A stretch of DNA of 64,000 bases from Chromatiales bacterium (lineage in GTDB: Bacteria > Pseudomonadota > Gammaproteobacteria > JAGRGH01): contig JAGRGH010000006.1 in the NCBI GenBank assembly GCA_020445605.1, forward strand, positions 69,465-133,464, in the 5' to 3' direction. A model generated the notes under the pieces. It saw only the letters and a program-made list of their open reading frames with translations. It was not told where the DNA came from and searched no databases. Position numbers and translations under genes: made by a program. Shown here one piece after another: positions 7,125 through 64,000 of this stretch (the stretch's first letter is position 1; every line of letters starts with the position of its first letter).

Positions 7125-8144
7125 ATGAAACCGCTTCAACGCACCACGCTCGGCTGTGCACTCGTCGCCGCCGGCCTGCTCATCGCCATCCCGCCCGCAT
7201 TCGCCGACGGCATCTGTACTTCCACGGCCAAGCTGCAACTGAAGGCCTGCAAGGAGGACGCCAAGGACGATTACTATCTCACGCGCGCGCAGTGCGAAAA
7301 TCTCGCCGACCCAGCTGCACACGCCGAGTGCGTGGCCGACTCCAAGCCCGAGCGGGACGCTGCGATCGACGAATGCCGTGTGCAGTATTTCTCCCGCCTG
7401 GACCTCTGCGGACTGGTCGGCGAGAACGCCTACGATCCACAGATCGATCCGGCGAACTTCGTCGATCCGCTCGCGATTGGCGACACCGTCGAGCCGAATC
7501 CGTATTTCCCGCTGACCCCAGGCTGGACGCGCGTCTACGAGGCTGGTGACGAGACCATCGTCGTGACCAACACCTATGAAACGGTCGAGATTCTCGGCGT
7601 GACCTGTCTCGTCGTGCGTGACACGGTGAGCGAGGACGGCGAACTCGTCGAAGACACCACCGATTGGTTCGCACAGCACATCGACGGCAGCGTCTGGTAC
7701 TTCGGCGAGATCGCGCGCAACTTCGAGGACGGCGAGCTGACCGATCTCGACGGTTCGTTCAAGGCCGGTGTCGACGGCGCCAAGGCCGGCATCGTCATGC
7801 AGGCCATGCCGATGGCCGGCGTGAGCTATCGCGAGGAATGGGCGCTCGGCGATGCCGAGGATGCCGCAACGGTGATCAGCACCGCGGCATCGGAGAGCTC
7901 GCCGTTCGTCGACTGCGTCGGCGACTGTGTGCAGACCTCGAACTTCACCCCGCTCGAACCGGGCATCTTCGAGAGCAAGTTCTATGCGCCGGGTATTGGC
8001 GTCATCGTCGGCTACAACGACGCCGAGACCGAGGATCGCGAGGAACTCGTCGACCGCTTCTTCACCGAACCCGAGGCCGATGAAGAAGAAGACCAGGAGG
8101 AAGGCGAGGATGACGACGACGAGGAAGACGAAGAGGACGATTGA
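7125..8144 (+). CDS. secreted Cys-rich protein with poly-Asp/Glu C-terminal tail (hypothetical)
   Basis: ORF 7017..8144 trimmed to ATG 7125 preceded by gaggaa RBS; signal peptide MKPLQRTTLGCALVAAGLLIAIPPAFA; 9 Cys; C-terminal ~35 residues almost exclusively D/E; divergent from the TCS at 4923-6969. Confidence 0.6.
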   Translation: MKPLQRTTLGCALVAAGLLIAIPPAFADGICTSTAKLQLKACKEDAKDDYYLTRAQCENLADPAAHAECVADSKPERDAAIDECRVQYFSRLDLCGLVGENAYDPQIDPANFVDPLAIGDTVEPNPYFPLTPGWTRVYEAGDETIVVTNTYETVEILGVTCLVVRDTVSEDGELVEDTTDWFAQHIDGSVWYFGEIARNFEDGELTDLDGSFKAGVDGAKAGIVMQAMPMAGVSYREEWALGDAEDAATVISTAASESSPFVDCVGDCVQTSNFTPLEPGIFESKFYAPGIGVIVGYNDAETEDREELVDRFFTEPEADEEEDQEEGEDDDDEEDEEDD

Positions 8145-8170
8145 TTCCCGTACCGATTCGTGAATCGTCA

Positions 8171-8187
8171 CGGCACAGGGAAGTGCC
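8171..8187 (+). promoter_or_regulatory. solo copy of palindrome CGGCACAGGGAAGTGCC (GGCAC-N6-GTGCC)
   Basis: Same 17-nt palindromic motif as at 8415-8431 and 55151-55167 (cggcacGgggaagtgcc); candidate operator. Confidence 0.3.
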
Positions 8188-8414
8188 CCATCCGACGTCC
8201 CCCCACAGCATCAGTCATCAAATGCCACGGCAATGTCCGAGACCGCCGTCCCCACAGACAGCACTCTCTCGACGCGCCAGGGCCCTACCAATCTCCCGCA
8301 TCGGCCTGTGTCCGCCCCTTCCGGACGCAGGCCATTTTTTCGTTTCCACGGGCCTGTACATGCACAACCCCACGCGACAACCTAAGGAAACTCTGAACAA
8401 TTCAGAGTTTCCCG

Positions 8415-8535
8415 CGGCACAGGGAAGTGCCGCCATTTTCAACGGACGTAAGACGTTGAAAATGAGAGAAAGCGAAAAATGACACTTTTTCGGTTTCGCT
8501 GCTCTGGCAATCCGGGACGGATTGATCAGAGCTTC
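8415..8535 (+). repeat. ~120-bp structured extragenic element, family A copy 1 (immediately upstream of OMP gene)
   Basis: Aligns along its length with 55151-55271: GGCAC-N6-GTGCC palindrome, hairpin ttttcaacg…cgttgaaaa, hairpin cgaaaaa…tttttcg, shared 3' end tggcaatcc…ggattgatcagagcttc; ends 15 nt before the ATG at 8550. Confidence 0.5.
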
Positions 8536-8549
8536 GCTAAAGTATCTGC

Positions 8550-16799: not shown

Positions 16800-16816
16800 C
16801 GAACCCGCGCAACCGG

Positions 16817-16850
16817 CTGTTGAAACGAGAACTTCAACGGCCTGCCAGGC
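16817..16850. repeat. partial family-B repeat / hairpin between convergent genes (overlaps znuA stop codon)
   Basis: gttgaaacgagaacttcaac stem-loop followed by ggcctgccaggc; near-identical to 55009-55043 (gttgaaacgagaatttcaacagcctgccaaac). Confidence 0.35.
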
Positions 16851-28520: not shown

Positions 28521-29494
28521 CTCGACGCGGCTCCGGAGCCGGCCCAACGTGCACGAATCTCTGCAAGCATCGTCGCCGCAACGTTTGCCGGGGCGTGCTC
28601 TTTCATCCATTCGGCGCGTTGCGAGCCGACGGCCGATGCGCGGGTGATTGCCAGGTCTACCGCACGCTGCCACGAGCCAACGTCGCGCTCCGAACATACG
28701 ACGACGCCCGGTGCGGCACCAAGAATCGTACTGGTGCGCCCGCGCGACATCACGACCGGTGCATCACAGGCAAGCGCCTCCAGGATTGCCGTCTGGCCGG
28801 CGGGGTGGTTGAAACTCGTGAGCGGCAGCAAGACTGCCGAAGCACGCTGGTAAAGATCACGCAGTTCACGGTACGGCACCCGAACCCGCACATCGACCAG
28901 CGGTTCCCGGTGCGCCTGGTGGTAGTTTGCCACCGCGGGATCGAGGCTGACGCGAACCATGCGATGTCCGGCCCTGGCAAGCGCACAGACCAGAGCCTCG
29001 TCGCGGTCGTTGTCGCCCGGTACGAGCCAGAAGTTGTCGCGTGGCGATGCCGGCGGACGGAAGTAGTCGGTATCGACGAGATAGGGCACCCGTAACGCAT
29101 TCACCCCGTAGACCACACGCATCTGTCGCTCCGTTACGCGGTCGTTGACGAACACCAGCGTTGCACGACGAGCGATCACTCCTAGGCGCCAGGCCTTCAC
29201 GCGATATCGCCAGGTGCCGCAGGGACGCGGCGCGCCCCAGCTCAGAAACGCATGGGCACCCCCACGCAGCGCATACAGAAACGCCTGCGGATCAGGTGCG
29301 ATGCTGAAAAGCAGACTGCGTGCCCTCAGCCACTGCCGCCAGTCCAGGCGTCGCAAGGGGGGATCAGGTAGACTGGCCCCGATCATCTCGAGGACATCGA
29401 AAATGTTTTTCGGATCGTCTTCGCCGAAGCGCGCGCGCCGAAGCGCCATTTCACCGAGTATGAAATCCGATACCAACACGGGCGTTGAGACCAA
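28517..29494 (-). CDS. glycosyltransferase (group 1 / GT-B C-terminal domain)
   Basis: 325 aa; C-terminal GT1 motif (LPLTSFNHPAGQTAILEALACDAPVVMS); 4-nt overlap with downstream GT4. Confidence 0.6.
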   Translation of the reverse strand: MVSTPVLVSDFILGEMALRRARFGEDDPKNIFDVLEMIGASLPDPPLRRLDWRQWLRARSLLFSIAPDPQAFLYALRGGAHAFLSWGAPRPCGTWRYRVKAWRLGVIARRATLVFVNDRVTERQMRVVYGVNALRVPYLVDTDYFRPPASPRDNFWLVPGDNDRDEALVCALARAGHRMVRVSLDPAVANYHQAHREPLVDVRVRVPYRELRDLYQRASAVLLPLTSFNHPAGQTAILEALACDAPVVMSRGRTSTILGAAPGVVVCSERDVGSWQRAVDLAITRASAVGSQRAEWMKEHAPANVAATMLAEIRARWAGSGAASR

Positions 29495-45701: not shown

Positions 45702-45869
45702 CGGTGAGAGCGGCGGGAAAACCGGATGAAGCGGGAGGCGAAGCTGCCAAAATCCGCGGGGATTGTAACCCGTTGATCCGGGCGCACGGTGAACGAGCCA
45801 AACCACTCCGTCGCCTGACGGGCTGTTAGAGCAAGGCCGGAACGTCTCGCCGGCAAATCGAATACCCAG

Positions 45870-45967
45870 GTGTTTGATTTTCGCGAGCGACCGAAAACCG
45901 CACTCTTCAGTTGCGATGTTGAAAAGGCCATAGAGAGGCCTGTTTCAACCACCTGCCAAACATCCGG
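45870..45967 (-). repeat. extragenic repeat family B, full copy (B1)
   Basis: gtgtttgattttcgcgagcgaccgaaaaccgcactcttcagttgcgatGTTGAAAaggccatagagaggcctgTTTCAACcacctgccaaac; reverse-complement matches 54868-54960 nearly base for base. Confidence 0.5.
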
Positions 45968-50823: not shown

Positions 50824-53331
50824 TCAGCTGAGCGACGATTCGCTTGCGACCTGGTCGGCGTATTCACGCGCCAGCGCAAGGCCCTGATCGACCAGCTTTC
50901 GCAGCCGCGCGATGGTCTGCGGCGCCGCACGCCGGGACTCCTCAATCTCGCGGGCGAGCGCGCTGGCATCAGGCAGACCAATGTTTCCGCAGGTTCCGCG
51001 GATCGAGTGCGCGACCTGCGAACAACCATCCGCGTCCTGTGAACCGCAGGCTGCTTCGAGCCGGGCGAACAGCCCGTCGAGTTCACCCCGGGCCTGCGCG
51101 ACGACCGCGCGCACGAACCCCATATTGGCGCCGAGCGCATACATGGATTCGAGCTGCGCAGGGTCGAACATCCCCGTCTGCGTCCGGCGCGGCTCGACGG
51201 GTGCCGCCCTCGGTGCATGCAGGATCGACGGATCGACGCCGGCCGCCACGGCAACGGATTCGCACAGCAACACGCCATCGACCGGCTTGGTCATCACGCG
51301 CGCAATGCCCAGTTCGCGGGCGCGCTCGCGCAGATCGGTGGTCGCATCCGCGGTCAGCAGCACCCAACCCGGTGAATTCGCAGGATTCGTGAACTGGTAG
51401 GTCGAGAACACGTGCAGGCCATCGATGTCCGGCAGGTTGTAATCGAGCACCACGACGTCGGGCCGCATGGTTTCGAGCAGTTCCAGGGCTTCCAGCCCCG
51501 AGCGTGCTCCGATGCACTCGTGGCCAACCCGCTCGAGATGCCAGCGCGTGACCATGAGGTTCGCCTCGTTGTCCTCGATCACGAGAACCTTGAGCCGTTC
51601 CGCCGCCTGGCCGGCCTCGCCTTCGCGTACGGGCGCGACGGCGCGCAGATCCGCGCGCGTTCCGCGACAGGCATGCAGGGTGTTCCACAGTCGACCACGC
51701 TCGAACTGCGTACCCATTCGGTAACCGACGAGCCCGCTGCCCATCCATGCCGTCTCGAGCGCCTCGCCGTAAACGACGAATCCCGGACGCTCGGCCGGTT
51801 CGAGTTGCAGGAGGGTCTCGACCACGCGGCCAACTTCACCATGCGACGCGCGCCGCCCGGTGTGGAGCACGATGATGTCGTGATGAAAACCGCGCGCCGC
51901 GCTCGTGAGTACCCGCTCGCGCGCTGGCGAAACAGAGTCGAACGAATCGACACGCACGCCCCAGTTCGCCAGCGCCTCGCGAATGCCCGCGGTGTCGCCA
52001 CCGAGATCGATCAGCACCACGGCCACTCCGGTGAGACCGGCATCGCCGCCTTCCGCGGACTCTAGCCGCTGCAGGGGCAGATCGAACCAGAACGTCGAAC
52101 CCCGGCCAGGCGTCGAGCGCACAACAATGCGCCCGCCAAGCAGTTCGACCAGGTCCTTTGCAATCGTGGTGCCCAACCCGGTACCGCCATAACGACGCGT
52201 GGTCGAGGCGTCGGCCTGGGCAAACGGCGCGAAGATGCGCCCGGATTCCTCAGGCGTCATCCCAATGCCGGTGTCCGTGATCTCAAACCGCACCAGGCTT
52301 TCGCCCGCAACGCGCCGGACTTCACGTACATGACCGGTCACGGCGCCGTGATCGGTGAACTTGATCGCGTTGTTGACTAGATTCGTGACGATCTGCCGCA
52401 GCATCAGCGGGTCCGAACGCACCTGCCACGGCGCGCCCGCATCGATGTCCAGCGTGAACTCGAGTGCCTTGCCGTGCGCGAGCGGCTCGAACATGCGCCA
52501 GATCGAGCGCATCAGCGCGTGCAGGTTGAACTCGGCCGGATCCGGCGTGGTGCGGCCGGCTTCGATCTTGGAGATGTCCAGCACGTCATTGAGCAGCGCG
52601 AGCAACACGCGCGAGGCGTCGTGGGCGCTCTGGGCCACTTCGCGCTCGGCCTGCGGCAGTCGGCCGACCCGAAGCATGTCCGTAAGCCCGATGATTCCGT
52701 TCAGCGGGGTGCGGATCTCGTGACTCATGTTCGCGAGAAACCGGCTTTTCGCCTGGTTGGCATCCTCGGCCTGCTTGCGTGCCGCATCCAGACGCCGCAG
52801 CAAAACCCCCTGGTAGAGCGGAATCAGCGCCAGCCCGACCCACAACCCGATCGACAGCGGCAGAATGCCCTGCCAGGTCGGACTCGCGGCAATCACCGCC
52901 CCGAAGCCAACCAGCGACAGCATCATGCTGTAGTTGAGCAGCGACCGCCCGAAGCGCGCGCCCATGCCCACGATGACCCACAGGTAGATCAGATAAAACG
53001 GCCAGCCGAGTTCGCCGGCCAACGCCAGCGCCACACTGAGGCTCACGATATCCAGGGTTGCACAGACGTAGCGGCGCGCAATGACGATGCGCGGTTCGAC
53101 CAGCACCCAGGCGATCAACCCCAGCGCCACCAGCACATAGCCCGCCGCCATGAGCCGCGGAATGTGCAGGCCCTCGCCGCCCGGGTTGTAGATCAGAACC
53201 GCGATCGCAACGACGATCGAGATCGCCAGCCGGATCAGGGCCTGTTCGAACTCTCCGCCCGGCAGATCACGGGCGGATTTCAGACGCCCCGCGAACCCGA
53301 GCACGCGGTGCACGATCTCAGCCATGTGCAA
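50824..53331 (-). CDS. unorthodox hybrid sensor histidine kinase (multi-TM input – HisKA – HATPase – pseudo-receiver – receiver – HPt)
   Basis: 835 aa; ~6 TM N-terminal domain with no periplasmic domain; H-box [18 protein letters not shown]; HATPase [19 protein letters not shown]; [18 protein letters not shown]…[12 protein letters not shown]; C-terminal HPt ([17 protein letters not shown]); start overlaps the rSAM stop by 14 nt (alternative ATG 53325). Confidence 0.85.
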
Positions 53332-54808
53332 CCTTGGCCTGGCGGTTGGTTTCTTCGTCGCGCGCCGACAACTTCAGGGAGGCGGGCAGCGGCGCATCAT
53401 GAATGTCAAAGCGCGCGCGGCGCAGTGCAAGGTAGTCGTCGCGACGATCGATTTCGACCGGACCGATGCCGCCGGACATCGGGTGCAGATGCTGCTTTGC
53501 GGACAGTCGCGCGAGCGCGGCGATATTTCGTTCCTCGGGCGTGGCCAGCCGGCCGCTGCGCCAGAGAAACTCATAGTGCGAGACGTAGGCGTCGTACATC
53601 TGCGTTTCGAGTTCCCGCGTGCTCATGTTCGGATGATGCCATGTCGGACAGCCCCCGTCGAAGCGGTCCATGTTGGTCTCCCAGATCAGTCCGTCGCGGC
53701 GGAACTCCTCATACTGTTCGGTGCCCGGGATCGGCGTAAGGATGTAGAACGAAACGACCTTTGGCGCCAGCCCGCGCAGCGCCTCCAGGTGTTCGGCGAT
53801 CGACGCCGGCGTATCCTGCGGAAAACCGATGATGTTCGAGTAATGCGCGCGGATTCCGGCGGCCGCGCACTGCTCGATGATCGAGCGATAGGTCTCCGGG
53901 TGGTTGTGATATTTGTGCGCGGCCTTGAGCGTCGCGCGCGAAAACGACTCCACACCGACGAACATCTCAAAGCAACCCGCCCGACCAAGCAGTTCAATGA
54001 ACTCCGGCTGGCGCGCGACCACGGTGTCGCACTGGCAGAAAAATCGCAGGCCCAGGTCCTCCTCGATCATGGCCTCGAGAAGAGCCGGCGCACTCGGCGC
54101 CTTGTTGAAGTTGTCGGACACGAACATGACCGTCTCGACGCCGCCCGCACGCGCGCGACGCAGGCTCTCGATCGTCGCATCCACGGACTGTTCGCGCACC
54201 GCACGACCTGCGATCTGGATCACCGCGCAAAACTTGCACTGGTAGGGGCAGCCGCGCATCGGCACCAGGCCCACCATCGGCGAGAAGTAGCGTTTCAGGT
54301 CATCGCGGGACGGCGGCGTGATCGGCGTCGGCGGCAATTCGGTCGCCCAGCGCTGGCCCTCGCCATAGACGGCCTTGAGTCCATGACCAGCGGCGGCATC
54401 GGCGAGGATTTCCGGCCACACGCGTTCGGCTTCGGCCAGCGCGAAGCTCACCCCCCGGCCCTGCAAGGCCGAGGTGTCGCAGGTCATCGGGTGCGGGCCG
54501 CCGATCACGACGTTGCGCACGCCGCGATCCAGCGCCAGGGCGGCAAGATCGAGTGCACGATGAAACTGGTGCGACTGCACCCCGACCATCGCCACGAGCG
54601 TGTCGCGCCCCGCAAGCCAGTCCAGGTAGTCGAGATCGCAGTGCACGTACTCATCGACCATGCGCGTTTCGACCGGCCGGTCCGCGAACCGCGCCGGAGT
54701 GAGAGCGGCCAGGTGGGTCAGGGTCGCATTGGGCATGAAGCCGGTACGGAAGCGTTCCACGCTACCGCTGCGGGTGTACTTGCTCGGCTTGATCAACACT
54801 ACGCGCAC
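53318..54808 (-). CDS. B12-binding domain-containing radical SAM protein
   Basis: 496 aa; N-terminal cobalamin-binding-like Rossmann (MRVVLIKP…VIGGPHP), rSAM cluster CPYQCKFC (CxxxCxxC); RBS gggagga 5 nt upstream of the ATG. Confidence 0.85.
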
Positions 54809-54867: not shown

Positions 54868-54960
54868 CTCTTAACAGGTTGTTGAAAAAGGTCCATCGAT
54901 GGCCTTTTCAACATTGCAACCGAAAAGCGCGGTTTTCGGCTGCTCTCGAAAATCAAACAC
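54868..54960 (+). repeat. extragenic repeat family B copy (B2), inverted relative to B1
   Basis: ggttGTTGAAAaaggtccatcgatggccttTTCAACattgcaaccgaaaagcgcggttttcggctgctctcgaaaatcaaacac ≈ reverse complement of 45870-45950. Confidence 0.5.
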
Positions 54961-54961
54961 T

Positions 54962-55045
54962 TGTGTGTTCGATTTTCGGGCGAGACGTCCCTGTCTCGCG
55001 CCAACAGACCGTTGAAACGAGAATTTCAACAGCCTGCCAAACCCG
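54962..55045 (+). repeat. diverged family B copy (B3), head to head with B2, forming a ~180-bp imperfect palindrome
   Basis: gtgtgttcgattttcgggcgagacg…GTTGAAAcgagaaTTTCAACagcctgccaaac; its 5' end mirrors the 3' end of B2 (aaatcaaacac|ttgtgtgttcgattt). Confidence 0.45.
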
Positions 55046-55150: not shown

Positions 55151-55271
55151 CGGCACGGGGAAGTGCCGCCACAACGACGGCGGCAAGCCGTTGAAAATGA
55201 AAGAAAGCGAAAAACCACGCTGTTTCGTTTTCGCTGCGCTGGCAATCCTTCGATGGATTGATCAGAGCTTC
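55151..55271 (+). repeat. ~120-bp structured extragenic element, family A copy 2 (upstream of the KAS operon)
   Basis: Collinear with 8415-8535, sharing cggcacRgggaagtgccgcc, …ccgttgaaaatgaRagaaagcgaaaaa…ttttcg(g)tttcgctgc(t)ctggcaatcc…ggattgatcagagcttc. Confidence 0.5.
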
Positions 55272-55359: not shown

Positions 55360-56559
55360 ATGACAGTAGCCATTACCGGGGTCGGGGTCGTGTCGTCACT
55401 GGGGATTGGCTTCCCGGCGTTTTCGGCGGCACTCGCACAAGGCCGCAGTTCGATCTCGCACTATGACGATCCGGTCAACGGCCGCAGCCGGCTCGCCGCG
55501 CGCATCGGCGACTGGGCGCCGGTACCCCCGCCCCCCGGCACCGGTCTCGGCAACGAGATTGATCCGGCCTGTCAGTACGCGCTGATCGCCGCGCGCGAGG
55601 CCGCGACCCGCGCGCGAGCACTCGAACGCCACGCCGACCGCGACCGGATCGGCGTCGTCGTCGGCTGTGCGGTGCCGGGCAAGATCGTCGACGACGCGGC
55701 CTATGCGAAGTTCTACGCGAATCCGACGCGACGTGTGCACCCGCTTTCGATCCCGCGAATCATGCCAAATGCAGCACCTTCGCTGATTGCGGCCGATCTG
55801 GAACTCGGTGGCACCGCCTATACGGTTTCAAGCGCCTGCACCTCTTCGCTGCACGCGCTGATGCTCGGCGCGACGCTCATCGAAACTGGCCTTGTCGACG
55901 CCGCGATCGTCGGCGGAACCGAGGCGCCATTTGCGCCCGGACTCATGGCGGGCTGGGACTCGATCGGCGTGCTGTCGAAGACCAGCTGCCGGCCGTTCGC
56001 CCCTGACCGCGACGGCACCGTGCTCGGCGAAGGTGCCGCGATGTTCGTATTGGAGTCTGCGCACCGCATCGGGCACGGCGCGATCGCGACAATCGCCGGC
56101 TACGGTGCAACGACCGGCCGCGGCGAAGTCGTCACCCCGGATACCGCGGCAGAAACCAGGGCCATGCGACAGGCGCTGCACGCGGCCGGGTGGTCAGGCG
56201 AGGATGTCGACTACATCGAATCCCACGGCACCGGCACCTGGGCCAACGACACCTCGGAGGCCGATGCCATTCATGCAACACTGGGCTCCGGCGCCGCAGT
56301 TTGGGTACCGGTCGGCGTACTGAAATCACGCATCGGTCACACGCTGGGCGCCGCCGGGGCATTTGCCTTGGCCGCCAGCCTGGCGCTCGCCCGCTCGCCA
56401 CAATGGAGCGGCCCGGAGTATGAATTCGATCCGGCGTTGCGCCTGTCACCAGCCGGCGGCCAGACCATCCGCCCGATCGACCGCAGCCTGGTCAATGCCT
56501 TCGGCTTCGGCGGTGCGAATCTAACGCTGGCCATCCGCCATGGAAGCGGCGGCAACTGA
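55360..56559 (+). CDS. beta-ketoacyl-[ACP] synthase, KAS I/II (FabB/FabF) family
   Basis: ORF 55333..56559 trimmed to MTVAITGVGVVS; active-site Cys in SSACTSSLHA, His in the ESHGTGT block, second His in the GHTLGAAG block; C-terminal NAFGFGGAN. Confidence 0.8.
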   Translation: MTVAITGVGVVSSLGIGFPAFSAALAQGRSSISHYDDPVNGRSRLAARIGDWAPVPPPPGTGLGNEIDPACQYALIAAREAATRARALERHADRDRIGVVVGCAVPGKIVDDAAYAKFYANPTRRVHPLSIPRIMPNAAPSLIAADLELGGTAYTVSSACTSSLHALMLGATLIETGLVDAAIVGGTEAPFAPGLMAGWDSIGVLSKTSCRPFAPDRDGTVLGEGAAMFVLESAHRIGHGAIATIAGYGATTGRGEVVTPDTAAETRAMRQALHAAGWSGEDVDYIESHGTGTWANDTSEADAIHATLGSGAAVWVPVGVLKSRIGHTLGAAGAFALAASLALARSPQWSGPEYEFDPALRLSPAGGQTIRPIDRSLVNAFGFGGANLTLAIRHGSGGN

Positions 56560-58680: not shown

Positions 58681-59847
58681 ATGAACCGGGACAGGCTCAG
58701 ACTGCTGATCATCGGTGCCGGCGGTATCGGGGCGTATTACGCGGCCCGCCTGGTCGACGCCGGCCACCCCGCCACATTGCTCGCCCGCGGCGCGCATCTC
58801 GCGGCAATGCAACGAGGTGGCCTGCGGGTCGAACATCCCGATTTCGGATTCAGCGGTGCGGTCGATGCCCTCGATGCAGACGAACTGCTCACCTCGCGCG
58901 ACGCCGCGGATTTTGATCTCGTTCTGCTGACGACCAAGGCCAACAGCACGGTCGACCTGATGCGGCAGCTGGGGGACTGGATCATGTCCGGCCCGGGGCT
59001 GAGCGTGATGTCCTTGCAGAACGGGATCGATAACGAACCGGCCATCGCGGGCCGGCTCGGCCTGCCCCGCACGCTGGGCGGTCTCGCCGTGCGCATCGGC
59101 GGTCATGTCACGGAACCCGGACATGTAATCGCGACAGGGCCGGCGCAGGTGGTCTGTGGCGCCTGGCCGAACCACCATGCGAATTACGGTGTACCGACTG
59201 AACGGATTCCGGCCGGCGAACTACTGGAGACCGGCGAGCGGGTCCGTTTCACGATCCCGACCGGACACGTGATCGAACTCTATGCACGGAAGACGGCCAC
59301 CGGCGGCACCTTGCCCGCAGTCAATCCCGAGGCATGGTCTCCCGAGGCGGAGCACGGCATCGCGCCGATCCGCATGGACCACATCCTGCTCTATGGCCCG
59401 GATATCGACGGAGCGCACGCCATCTTCCGTGACGTACTCGGCTTCTATCTGGTCGAGCACATCGTCCAGGACGACGAATCAGATCTGGCGATCTGGTTGT
59501 CCTGCTCGATCAAGGCGCACGACATTGCGTTCGTTAAACACGACGAGCCCGGCAAGCTGCATCACATCGCGTTCGTGCTGGAAACCTGGGAAAAGGTGCT
59601 GCGCGCGGCTGACCTGATGTCCATGCATCGCGTACCCATCGACATCGGCCCGACCCGCCACGGCGTGACACGTGGCACCACGATCTATGCGTTCGATCCG
59701 TCGGGCAACCGCTTCGAGACCTACTGCGGTGGCTACCAGCCCTACCCGGACTGGCAACCAACGAAATGGACAATGGAGGAAATCGGCGCGGGCATCTTCT
59801 ATCACAACCGCCAGCTGAACGAAGCGTTCCTCACCGTCCTGACGTAG
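58681..59847 (+). CDS. chimeric protein: ketopantoate-reductase (PanE/ApbA) N-terminal Rossmann domain fused to the catalytic C-terminal domain of a catechol 2,3-dioxygenase-type extradiol dioxygenase
   Basis: Residues 1-~160 LLIIGAGGIGAYYAARL…VLLTTKANST…SLQNGIDNE (ApbA_N); residues ~170-388 align with the XylE catalytic domain (…VRFTIPTGHVIELYA…VNPEAWSPE…IRMDHILLYGPDIDGAHAIFRDVLGFYLVEH…SIKAHDIAFVKH…KLHHIAFVLETWEKVLRAADLMSMHRVPIDIGPTRHGVTRGTTIYAFDPSGNRFETYCGGY…IFYHNRQLNEAFLTVLT); single uninterrupted 388-codon ORF. Confidence 0.75.
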   Translation: MNRDRLRLLIIGAGGIGAYYAARLVDAGHPATLLARGAHLAAMQRGGLRVEHPDFGFSGAVDALDADELLTSRDAADFDLVLLTTKANSTVDLMRQLGDWIMSGPGLSVMSLQNGIDNEPAIAGRLGLPRTLGGLAVRIGGHVTEPGHVIATGPAQVVCGAWPNHHANYGVPTERIPAGELLETGERVRFTIPTGHVIELYARKTATGGTLPAVNPEAWSPEAEHGIAPIRMDHILLYGPDIDGAHAIFRDVLGFYLVEHIVQDDESDLAIWLSCSIKAHDIAFVKHDEPGKLHHIAFVLETWEKVLRAADLMSMHRVPIDIGPTRHGVTRGTTIYAFDPSGNRFETYCGGYQPYPDWQPTKWTMEEIGAGIFYHNRQLNEAFLTVLT

Positions 59848-63122: not shown

Positions 63123-64000
63123 CTAGGGTACCGCTGGCGCATTTTTCGGCGCGGACTGCAAGATATCAGCGACTGATCGGGAGCCATCGTCGACGTCTTT
63201 TATCGTTACCGCCGTGCCCGGCCGTACGGAAATGGTTCCGTGAGTGACGACCCGCTCGCCCGCTTTCAGGCCATCCAGAACTTCAACCTCGCCCGGACGG
63301 CGGCCGCCAATGCTGATTTTCCTGCGTTCGGCCTTGTGTCCGTCGCCATTGGGCACGACAACCAGCACGAACTGCTCGCGGCTGACCGGCATCAATGCGG
63401 CTTCGGGGATGGCAAGCGCATCCCGTCGATTGTTGCTGACCGTCACCTGCATCAGCATGCCCGGTTTCAACAAACGCTCTCGGTTGGGCAATAGCGCGCG
63501 AACACGAACCGTACGTGTTACGGGGTCAATCCGGCTGTCCACACCGCTGACCTTGCCGGTGAAGCTGCGATCGGCATAGGCATCCGTGCTCGCAGAGATC
63601 ATCAGACCGGATCTGAGTGAAGCGAGATAAATGCTGGGGACCGACACATCCAGCTTCATGACGCTGTCGTCGTCGAGTGTGGCGATCAGGTCCCCGGGCT
63701 CCACCAGGGCACCGACACTGATGGTTCTCAGGCCAATCACGCCGTCAAAGGGCGCCCTGATCAAGCGATCCGCAAGGCGCGACTCAATGACGGCCAATCG
63801 GGCACGCGCCGTTTCCAGCTCACGCGAGCGCTCGTCCAGAAGGGACTTTGCCGCCGCGCCCGTCGTCTCGAGCGACTTCACGCGGTGATACTGGCGTCGC
63901 GCTTCCTCGACGAGGGCCTTGCCCTCCTCCAGTTGGGCATGCTCCTCGGCCGACGTCATTTCCACCAGAACCTGCCCCTTCGACACGCGAGCGCCATCGT
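63123..64000 (-). CDS. RND efflux periplasmic adaptor (membrane fusion protein), 3' portion; 5' end beyond window
   Basis: Coiled-coil hairpin (…EEARRQYHRVKSLETTGAAAKSLLDERSRELETARARLAVIESRL…), beta-barrel and MP domains; frame open to the window edge. Confidence 0.85.
   Translation of the reverse strand, partial: DGARVSKGQVLVEMTSAEEHAQLEEGKALVEEARRQYHRVKSLETTGAAAKSLLDERSRELETARARLAVIESRLADRLIRAPFDGVIGLRTISVGALVEPGDLIATLDDDSVMKLDVSVPSIYLASLRSGLMISASTDAYADRSFTGKVSGVDSRIDPVTRTVRVRALLPNRERLLKPGMLMQVTVSNNRRDALAIPEAALMPVSREQFVLVVVPNGDGHKAERRKISIGGRRPGEVEVLDGLKAGERVVTHGTISVRPGTAVTIKDVDDGSRSVADILQSAPKNAPAVP

Follow-up and report, generated by a model that had tools for sequence, protein, structure and literature searches.

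A dispersed family of structured intergenic repeats in Gammaproteobacteria with candidate CsrA/RsmA-binding loops

The stretch of DNA analysed here (the window) comprises 64,000 nucleotides of a Chromatiales bacterium (GenBank assembly GCA_020445605.1, contig JAGRGH010000006.1, positions 69,465 to 133,464 of the forward strand), and the element of interest is a structured intergenic repeat, of which the highest-scoring copy (copy A, 8416-8534) precedes a porin-like gene starting at ATG 8550. In an earlier note on this DNA the element was described as a module shared by two distant operon leaders, of this gene and of a KAS operon, and it is indeed present upstream of both, where copies A and B (55152-55270) are collinear. 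It belongs to a family of repeats that is multi-copy within genomes and whose fold is selected on one strand.

The gene at ATG 8550 encodes a porin-like protein of 370 residues with a signal peptide. This protein has no Pfam match, and one distant homologue carries Porin_4. Its non-identical relatives are at most 44% identical, and the identical protein is found on 23 contigs, all with the same 405-nt spacer in front of the gene. The transcript of the preceding gene (7125-8144) is ended by a terminator-like hairpin at 8303-8333 (12 bp, of which nine are G-C), followed by ATTTTTT, and copy A occupies 152 of the 216 nt between this terminator and the start codon, ending some 12-15 nt before the ATG. 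Since the terminator precedes it and the ATG follows after 15 nt, copy A must fall largely within a transcript; almost certainly it is part of the 5' leader of the porin-like gene, and very probably it is transcribed in the sense orientation. The 15 nt between the element and ATG 8550 (GCTTCGCTAAAGTATCTGCATG) contain no recognisable Shine-Dalgarno sequence. A consensus scan of copies A-C of the window finds neither a sigma-70-like promoter nor a terminator belonging to the element, and no U-tract was found after its hairpins.

The unit of the repeat consists of the hairpins H1-H2-H3-H4 and is 105-120 nt long, or about 150 nt when the usual preceding hairpin H0 is included (105-155 nt overall). 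In copy A, where all hairpins are on the plus strand, the predicted H0 (8386-8412, GGAAACTCTGA-ACAAT-TCAGAGTTTCC) has a stem that repeats the outer stem of H4 and a 5' arm that starts with A-A-GGA-A. H1 (8416-8431) has a 5-bp stem, GGCAC/GTGCC, and the hexaloop AGGGAA. H2 (8434-8464) is a long, variable spacer hairpin with an 11-bp stem, and H3 (8465-8500) has a conserved apex of an A-run, a YCRCRY loop and a U-run, above lower-stem pairs that covary. H4 (8501-8532, or 8501-8537 with the conserved tail TTC) has the outer stem GCTCTG/CAGAGC and the apical loop GGGAC, which contains GGA. The earlier count of a palindrome with two further hairpins is thus correct for the palindrome, which is H1, and is to be revised for the hairpins, as three follow H1 and H0 precedes it in copy A. 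The hairpins are highly stable (-55 to -85 kcal/mol), and the repeat is seen as single units, tandem arrays, head-to-head pairs and fragments (solo H1 and solo H0).

Within the window, the 16-mer of H1, GGCACRGGGAAGTGCC, is found at 8172, 8416 and 55152, each time on the plus strand, with an expected number of occurrences of 0.17; three occurrences were reached in none of 100 shuffles. The occurrence at 8172 is the third, solo copy of the palindrome that had been reported before. This solo H1 (8172-8187, plus strand) is identical to H1 of copy A, is preceded by a small hairpin, and lies in the 3' untranslated region (UTR) of the preceding gene, between the stop codon at 8144 and the terminator. 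A covariance model (R1), built from eight clear instances and run over the whole window with filters off, scores copies A, B, C and D at 106.6, 92.4, 57.1 and 26.7 bits, respectively, and it matches the solo H1 with model positions 1-16 alone (16 bits). Copies C and D had escaped the earlier note, and the element is therefore not confined to two distant leaders. Copies A and B are of the same subfamily; their global identity over about 119 nt is 84.9%, higher than the approximately 75% given before, and it includes a gap-free block of 72 nt with 85% identity. Copies C and D form a second subfamily, the identities being 85% (A/B) and 81.5% (C/D) within and about 62% between the subfamilies.

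Copy B (plus strand) is located about 90 nt upstream of the start called at 55360 for the KAS gene (399 aa). It is partly decayed, with GGGGAA as H1 loop, four broken H2 pairs and UUCGAU as H4 loop. Copy C (minus strand, 54879-54997, extending to 55038 with H0) occupies the same intergenic region and points to the divergent radical-SAM gene (53318-54808, minus strand), being 70 nt upstream of it in the sense orientation. It has H0 at about 55003-55038 (stem GTTGAAA/TTTCAAC), H1 at 54982-54997 (GAGACAGGGACGTCTC, that is, GAGAC-AGGGAC-GTCTC) and H2-H4 down to 54879, where the H4 loop AUCGAU has lost the GGA. In copy D (45833-45951, plus strand, C-type) H1 and the H4 loop are degenerate, and both neighbouring genes are antisense to it. 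A solo H0-type hairpin of the C subfamily (16810-16847, minus strand), 87% identical to 55002-55039, directly follows a stop codon. The region 29216-29325, with 8.6 bits and an ANGGAN hairpin, was considered as an extra copy and rejected, as it does not have the H2-H4 architecture. When the metagenomic contig is followed for another 18 kb in total past the two ends of the window (L269 and L270; L-numbers denote loci gathered from genome and metagenome collections in this analysis), a fifth good copy is found at L269:13669-13786 (69.6 bits), antisense to both neighbours, together with a decayed sixth copy, and with 82 kb of contig covered, the density becomes about one copy per 16 kb. The single orientation relative to the downstream gene, as previously proposed, holds for copies A, B and C and the solo hairpin and fails for copy D and the L269 copy. 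Among the copies of this genome that were examined, only copy A has both GGA loops intact.

Covariation on homologous copies supports the fold, and it does so on one strand. In an alignment of 48 sequences, 92.4% of the pair cells are canonical, compared with 63% when shuffled and 34-49% when the partners are slid, and compensatory double changes are found at 32 of the 34 pairs, including all 12 modelled pairs of H2. In a second alignment, which is independent of H1, 95.1% are paired, compared with 68% when shuffled, and all five H1 pairs show compensatory changes; both alignments were fitted to the R1 model, which flatters the pairing figures. In the raw folds, all subfamilies show the same four hairpins. 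For each of the stems, pairing is kept by compensatory changes, and the loops are the conserved parts. G·U/U·G pairs exceed A·C/C·A pairs in both samples (67:19 and 38:4), which argues against a palindrome of duplex DNA. As the strand is assigned by the asymmetric loops, this excess points to selection on the folding of one strand, as RNA or as single-stranded DNA (ssDNA). This is not in agreement with the palindrome being a DNA operator: its half-sites covary (GGCAC/GTGCC, AGCGC/GCGCT, GGTAT/ATACC and GACCC/GGGTC), and its asymmetric spacer A-GGA- is conserved, as for a hairpin and not as for a dyad-symmetric site. Of the cis-regulatory leader proposed earlier, it is almost certain that copy A belongs to the 5' leader of the porin-like gene, and the operator is not retained.

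The apex of H3 (for example 8476-8490 and 55212-55226) is kept across subfamilies as an A-run, a YCRCRY loop (CCACGC, TCGCA or TGACAC) and a T-run. H0 has different, covarying stems in other subfamilies; the CTCTGA..TCAGAG(Y)TTCC hairpin before H1 is also present in L007, L111, L060, L061, L026, L056 and L032, and in this CTCTGA subfamily a third A-N-GGA-A is found at the start of the 5' arm of H0.

The conserved loops of H1 and H4 resemble the binding sites of CsrA/RsmA. The optimal contact sequence of RsmE/CsrA is A/U-CANGGANG-U/A (Schubert et al. 2007, quoted in PMC6849547 and PMC5864733), and H1 of copy A, reading A-CAGGGAAG-U in a 5-bp stem, fits this sequence. Among the 23 distinct versions of the H1 hexaloop in the H1-independent sample, A is found at the first position in 22, G at the third in 23, G at the fourth in 22 and A at the fifth in 19, and the loop is mostly closed by C-G (C-ANGGAN-G), with the variation confined to the two N positions of the consensus. 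The H1 stems of this sample include GGCAC/GTGCC, AGCGC/GCGCT, GGTAT/ATACC, GACCC/GGGTC and GACAC/GTGTC. Of 26 distinct versions of the apical loop of H4, 23 carry GGA in the centre, on at least 12 unrelated stems and in the context CA(N)GGA(U)G, the loop sequences being CANGGAUG or CAGGA(U/G)G. Loops of the AYGGAY type (ACGGAU, AUGGAU) occur in H1 and H4 of several subfamilies. By sequence, the element thus has what characterises a CsrA/RsmA site, an ANGGAN core in a hairpin loop with consensus flanks. A CsrA/RsmA dimer has two binding surfaces, calling for two sites per RNA (PMC5864733). In L154, three tandem units provide six CANGGANG hairpins, followed by a terminator-like hairpin, and in L061 and L090 expanded relatives are found in which H4 has grown into a cluster of 5-7 GGA hairpins.

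The family was traced in other genomes with two samples. The first is a scan of one genome per species with the H1 16-mer (at least 120 matches), and as it is selected on H1, the second, a scan of metagenome contigs, was anchored on the H3 loop and the downstream GGAT and chosen without reference to H1. The counts from both collection scans are samples and therefore lower bounds. Matches to the 16-mer with G at position 6 are mostly chance matches inside actinobacterial coding sequence, and those with A at this position are overwhelmingly gammaproteobacterial and intergenic. R1 gives at least 48 matches at E < 0.01 in the genome loci (the E-values are rough, from a quick calibration) and at least 37 in the metagenome loci, about 90 copies elsewhere. 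The carriers are Halomonas elongata and Microbulbifer okhotskensis as well as metagenome-assembled genomes (MAGs) of Steroidobacteraceae, Lysobacteraceae, Sulfurifustis, Porticoccaceae, Chromatiaceae, Sedimenticola and various Pseudomonadales. At least seven other genomes contain more than one copy of the element, several of them giving two or three loci each, and the copies within a genome can be 94-100% identical; the copies of L026 and L056 are 100% identical at different loci. No match was found in E. coli genomes or in plasmid and phage collections, and viral contigs gave 22 matches to the 16-mer in 2.9 million, with weak model scores; a phage or plasmid origin was rejected on these grounds.

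Searches against Rfam 15, with permissive scans included, matched neither the window nor 15 diverse loci nor the expanded variants, and the sole thematically relevant resemblance, to fragments of the Rsm sponge RsmV, is weak (12-14 bits, compared with a gathering score of 100). In full-text searches of open-access literature, neither the element sequence nor a link between CsrA and REP-type repeats was found, and the family appears to be undescribed. A second multi-copy repeat family with the exact H1 16-mer was also observed, in L072:4860-5080, L095 and L106 (of one MAG) and in L006, L041 and L114. In this family GTTTGCGGACCGAAGGATGGAA comes after H1 and contributes three further GGA motifs, all of it being enclosed by a long stem, CCCAGGGC...GCCCTGGG; the family has no Rfam match either.

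Every copy is intergenic, and many are located 8-45 nt past a stop codon or 9-90 nt ahead of a start codon. The adjoining genes are unrelated and include those of an RND MFP (adaptor), a DsrC/TusE-like protein, AceF, FlgG, topoisomerase III, TrpB, QueF, peroxiredoxin and PstC, as well as tRNA-tufB, such that a regulon of related genes was rejected. One element is found upstream of pstC in an apparent pst operon. In a complete gammaproteobacterial MAG, a sense copy (L111:2715-2850) lies between the tRNA genes (2508-2589 and 2865-2935) of the tRNA-tufB operon and must belong to a very abundant primary transcript. When considering 65 instances with crude gene calls (from a home-made composition score), no orientation preference is found: co-directional gene pairs have the element in sense in seven and in antisense in seven instances, and neighbours are on the same or the opposite strand in 23/19 and 21/23. 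A sense bias of 12:6, apparent in the first 44 matches, was discarded, as it became 7:7 at 65 matches with a neighbour limit of 600 nt. When set against local GC skew, the orientation is equally unbiased (25 of 50). The solo H1 hairpins are in sense in nine and in antisense in five instances, too few for reading them as 5'-UTR sites. The element is thus no operator dedicated to coupling the KAS operon with the porin-like gene, and a regulatory link specific to these two is not supported. Finding the element at many intergenic sites irrespective of gene orientation had been named beforehand as evidence for a plain repeat, and this is what is seen, with about one copy per 16 kb here and multiple copies in at least seven other genomes.

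In addition to the tandem triple array of L154, head-to-head pairs are found in L222 and L190, so that in copy number, intergenic location and tandem or alternating clusters the family, as seen over the 82 kb of contig and in these three loci, behaves as REP (repetitive extragenic palindrome) and BIME repeats do. Outside H0-to-tail, the copies do not have conserved flanks. In L154, the first H1 of the array is preceded at a distance of about 50 nt by IS110-family transposase genes (1162-2118 and 2167-2539; Pfam DEDD_Tnp_IS110 and Transposase_20), and in L190 (reverse strand, transposase 94-1035) the palindromic H0 that is common to the head-to-head pair is interrupted by an IS110-family element. 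These two cases suggest that the IS110 family prefers the repeat, or its H0 hairpin, as a target, in line with the report that REPs are targets of insertion sequences (PMC1525189).

Some other features of the surrounding genes are recorded here. The protein encoded upstream of the copy A spacer (339/375 aa, without Pfam match) has a run of about 25 residues, nearly all of them Asp or Glu, at its C-terminal end (EADEEEDQEEGEDDDDEEDEEDD, window 8075-8144). Downstream of copy B, the open reading frame (ORF) 58681-59847 encodes an N-terminal ketopantoate-reductase (ApbA/PanE) domain fused to catechol-dioxygenase-like and glyoxalase domains, and it is the last gene of an unusual small operon, biosynthetic or catabolic, with genes for KAS, HpcH aldolase and aminotransferase. 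Beyond window position 64000, L270:1-9000 is a dense toxin-antitoxin island (two HipA, ParE, Fic, PIN/MazE-like and several helix-turn-helix proteins), which borders the RND efflux genes at the right end of the window and has no repeat copies inside.

Taken together, we give about an even chance to the interpretation that the element is a REP/BIME-like dispersed modular repeat, widespread in non-enteric Gammaproteobacteria, of which the sense RNA presents two CsrA/RsmA sites. Binding of a CsrA/RsmA dimer at H1 and H4 is proposed because two different hairpins keep the CsrA/RsmA motif while their surroundings drift; such binding by the element RNA is predicted from the sequence, and we rate it a little short of even. 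It is possible that, wherever the sense strand is transcribed, H1 and H4 would form two high-affinity sites for one dimer, with the stable hairpins H2 and H3 acting as a rigid spacer that keeps the two sites apart. A copy could then recruit or sequester CsrA on any transcript that carries it, which would concern the leader of copy A, the divergent KAS and radical-SAM leaders with copies B and C, and the elements of the tRNA-tufB and pstC loci. The copies would be spread by a trans-acting mechanism and subsequently decay neutrally. More tentatively, the repeat may be a mobile or proliferating 'portable Csr box' that brings CsrA-binding capacity into arbitrary transcripts, such that the copies, at hundreds in each genome, would together serve as a distributed CsrA sponge in Chromatiales, Steroidobacterales, Lysobacterales and Cellvibrionales-type and Halomonas-type bacteria, and global post-transcriptional regulons would be rewired by repeat proliferation. 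The arrays and the GGA-rich expansions (L154, L061 and L090) might in this case be the evolutionary raw material of sponge small RNAs (sRNAs).

Several observations weigh against CsrA binding as the function of the repeat. The case for CsrA is a match of sequence and structure. Strand-specific hairpins with conserved loops are likewise selected in ssDNA transposition systems, and the conserved features may serve the propagation of the repeat itself or act only collectively. The orientation of the copies is neutral, as judged with crude gene calls, and a sense-only, co-transcribed module selected per locus should show a bias. No promoter of its own was found that would supply sense RNA for copies inserted in antisense. 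Copies B, C and D and the copies in the flanks have lost one or both GGA loops, and from this loss and the neutral orientation it follows that most copies in this genome are not under locus-level selection. In addition, both samples were ascertained on parts of the element, the first on the H1 16-mer and the second on the H3 loop and the downstream GGAT, and the model fit mentioned above favours the pair counts.

The alternative that we take most seriously, ranking it below CsrA binding and regarding it as rather unlikely, is a repeat that is mobile at the DNA level, of the REP/RAYT or IS200/IS605-derived type, in which H1 and H4 would be ssDNA hairpins read by a transposase, whether of the Y1/HUH type or another, and the similarity with CsrA sites would have arisen by chance. 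Such a repeat would be expected to have a strand-specific fold, and it would account for the dispersed copies in either orientation, in tandem, head to head and as fragments, for near-identical copies at different loci, for the decay of copies in this genome and for the IS110-family elements beside or inside the repeat, as reported for REPs (PMC1525189). The two large REP superfamilies are however recognised by a single imperfect palindrome of 20-40 bp that bears GTAG or CGTC as an end tag (PMC3733652), whereas the model consensus has neither tag and the element has four to five different hairpins in 105-155 nt. Moreover, H1 and H4 share only the loop motif, their stems covary independently, and the loop varies precisely at the N positions of the CsrA consensus, which suits an RNA-binding protein that reads the loop better than a transposase that reads the hairpin foot. 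The absence of a GC-skew bias also speaks against it. Searches by tblastn with E. coli RAYT and IS200 TnpA queries matched nothing in 1.97 Mb of loci, which is a weak test as RAYTs are single-copy.

A generic RNA structure without a specific protein partner, acting as a barrier to 3'-5' exonucleases, as an mRNA stabiliser or as an intercistronic insulator or terminator, as proposed for REP, ERIC and BOX, would agree with the stability of the hairpins and with the many copies 8-45 nt past a stop codon or between co-directional genes; it is nevertheless improbable, as it does not explain why the loop bases (A-GGA and the H3 loop) are conserved amid the turnover of the stems, and neither a U-tract nor an orientation bias is found. 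Slightly less probable still is the proposal that each unit or array is an independent gene of a Csr/Rsm-sponge sRNA with its own promoter, a counterpart of CsrB/RsmXYZ. Orientation independence would be natural for self-transcribed genes, both sites fit the CsrA consensus, GGA-rich expanded forms occur, and the six hairpins of the L154 array end in a terminator-like hairpin. This is opposed by the window copies without a sigma-70-like promoter or terminator, the flanks that are not conserved, copies only 9-45 nt from adjoining ORFs or inside operons, and a density with frequent decay that is unlike regulated sRNA genes; membership of the known sponge class was rejected, as no Rfam Csr/Rsm model reaches its gathering score in the window or the 15 loci. 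The original proposal, a locus-specific leader in which a palindromic operator and a structured 5' UTR would place the porin-like gene and the KAS/aldolase operon under joint control, is hardly tenable. Copies A, B and C are each upstream of a gene and in sense, and copy A is downstream of a terminator and 15 nt from a start codon, but copy D and L269:13669 are antisense to their neighbours, the roughly 90 copies elsewhere adjoin unrelated genes without orientation bias, the palindrome stem covaries around a conserved asymmetric loop, and key loop bases are already lost in B and C.

Other known identities were also considered and rejected. The sigma-54 promoter consensus is TGGCAC-N5-TTGCW, with GG and GC exactly 10 bases apart; GGCACAGGGAAGTGCC gives GG-N11-GC, which is one base too long, has GTGC for TTGC, and is part of a stem that covaries. 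There are no family-wide terminal inverted repeats and no flanking direct repeats at L026, L056 and other copies, as would be required for a miniature inverted-repeat transposable element. A small toxic peptide of the SIB/LDR type is not supported, as the ATG at the H2/H3 junction opens six codons in copy A and unrelated ORFs of 14-26 codons elsewhere, with none in GC-rich copies, and the stems are compensatory. An integron attC site, a riboswitch or a known sRNA does not match in Rfam.

The family is found in poorly studied, environmentally abundant Gammaproteobacteria, where its copies would otherwise be mistaken for riboswitches, leaders or operators. If CsrA binding is correct, repeat proliferation would be tied directly to a global RNA-binding regulator, genes could join or quit the Csr/Rsm regulon whenever a repeat inserts or decays, and hundreds of dispersed sites could buffer the pool of free CsrA. 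The repeats would also be candidate Csr/Rsm antagonists for lineages without recognisable CsrB/RsmXYZ, and to our knowledge antagonists of this type have not been described for the carrier lineages. In addition, the H0 hairpin appears to be a natural target of IS110-family recombinases, a family that is currently of interest as RNA-guided recombinases.

When compared with known systems, the element shares with the REP/BIME repeats of E. coli, Pseudomonas and Stenotrophomonas that it is a high-copy intergenic hairpin repeat, found singly, in tandem and as inverted pairs, in either orientation, after stop codons or in operons, and as a target of the IS110 family, as far as these repeats are described in PMC1525189 and PMC2817692. 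It differs in its size of 105-155 nt with four to five distinct hairpins, none of which has GTAG or CGTC at its foot, in conserving the loops and not the stem foot, and in an architecture that is common to several gammaproteobacterial orders, whereas REPs are species-specific.

The pneumococcal BOX (boxA-B-C), the enterobacterial ERIC/IRU and the Neisseria Correia elements are modular intergenic repeats of 100-150 nt with strong predicted RNA structure and variable modules, which are co-transcribed with adjoining genes. The element is similar to these in size range, modularity and predicted RNA structure, and it differs in having no E. coli, plasmid or phage matches and neither terminal inverted repeats nor target-site duplications; we know of no CsrA-type loops described as a feature of the BOX, ERIC/IRU or Correia families. 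The TwoAYGGAY RNA motif, reported for the human gut, Gammaproteobacteria and Clostridiales, has two hairpins with AYGGAY loops (Weinberg et al. 2010, PMC2864571), and several subfamilies of the element carry ACGGAU or AUGGAU in H1 and H4. However, two long spacer hairpins stand between the GGA hairpins of the element, and the second loop position can be any base; this identity was rejected, as neither copy A nor the AYGGAY-rich array of L154 gives an Rfam match to the motif at E up to 10.

With the Csr/Rsm sponges (CsrB, RsmX/Y/Z/V) and the dual-site leaders, such as that of hcnA, the element has in common A-N-GGA-N hairpin loops, closed by C-G, with at least two sites per RNA, and its arrays and expanded forms carry 5-7 sites. 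The element differs from these systems in that it matches no Rfam Csr/Rsm model, gave no promoter or terminator in the consensus scan, is scattered in many copies and in either orientation, and has in copy A no site that overlaps a Shine-Dalgarno sequence; the binding considered here is a predicted one. Structured intergenic repeats are known as a kind, and what appears to be new is the five-hairpin module in combination with its range over several orders and its consensus CsrA loops.

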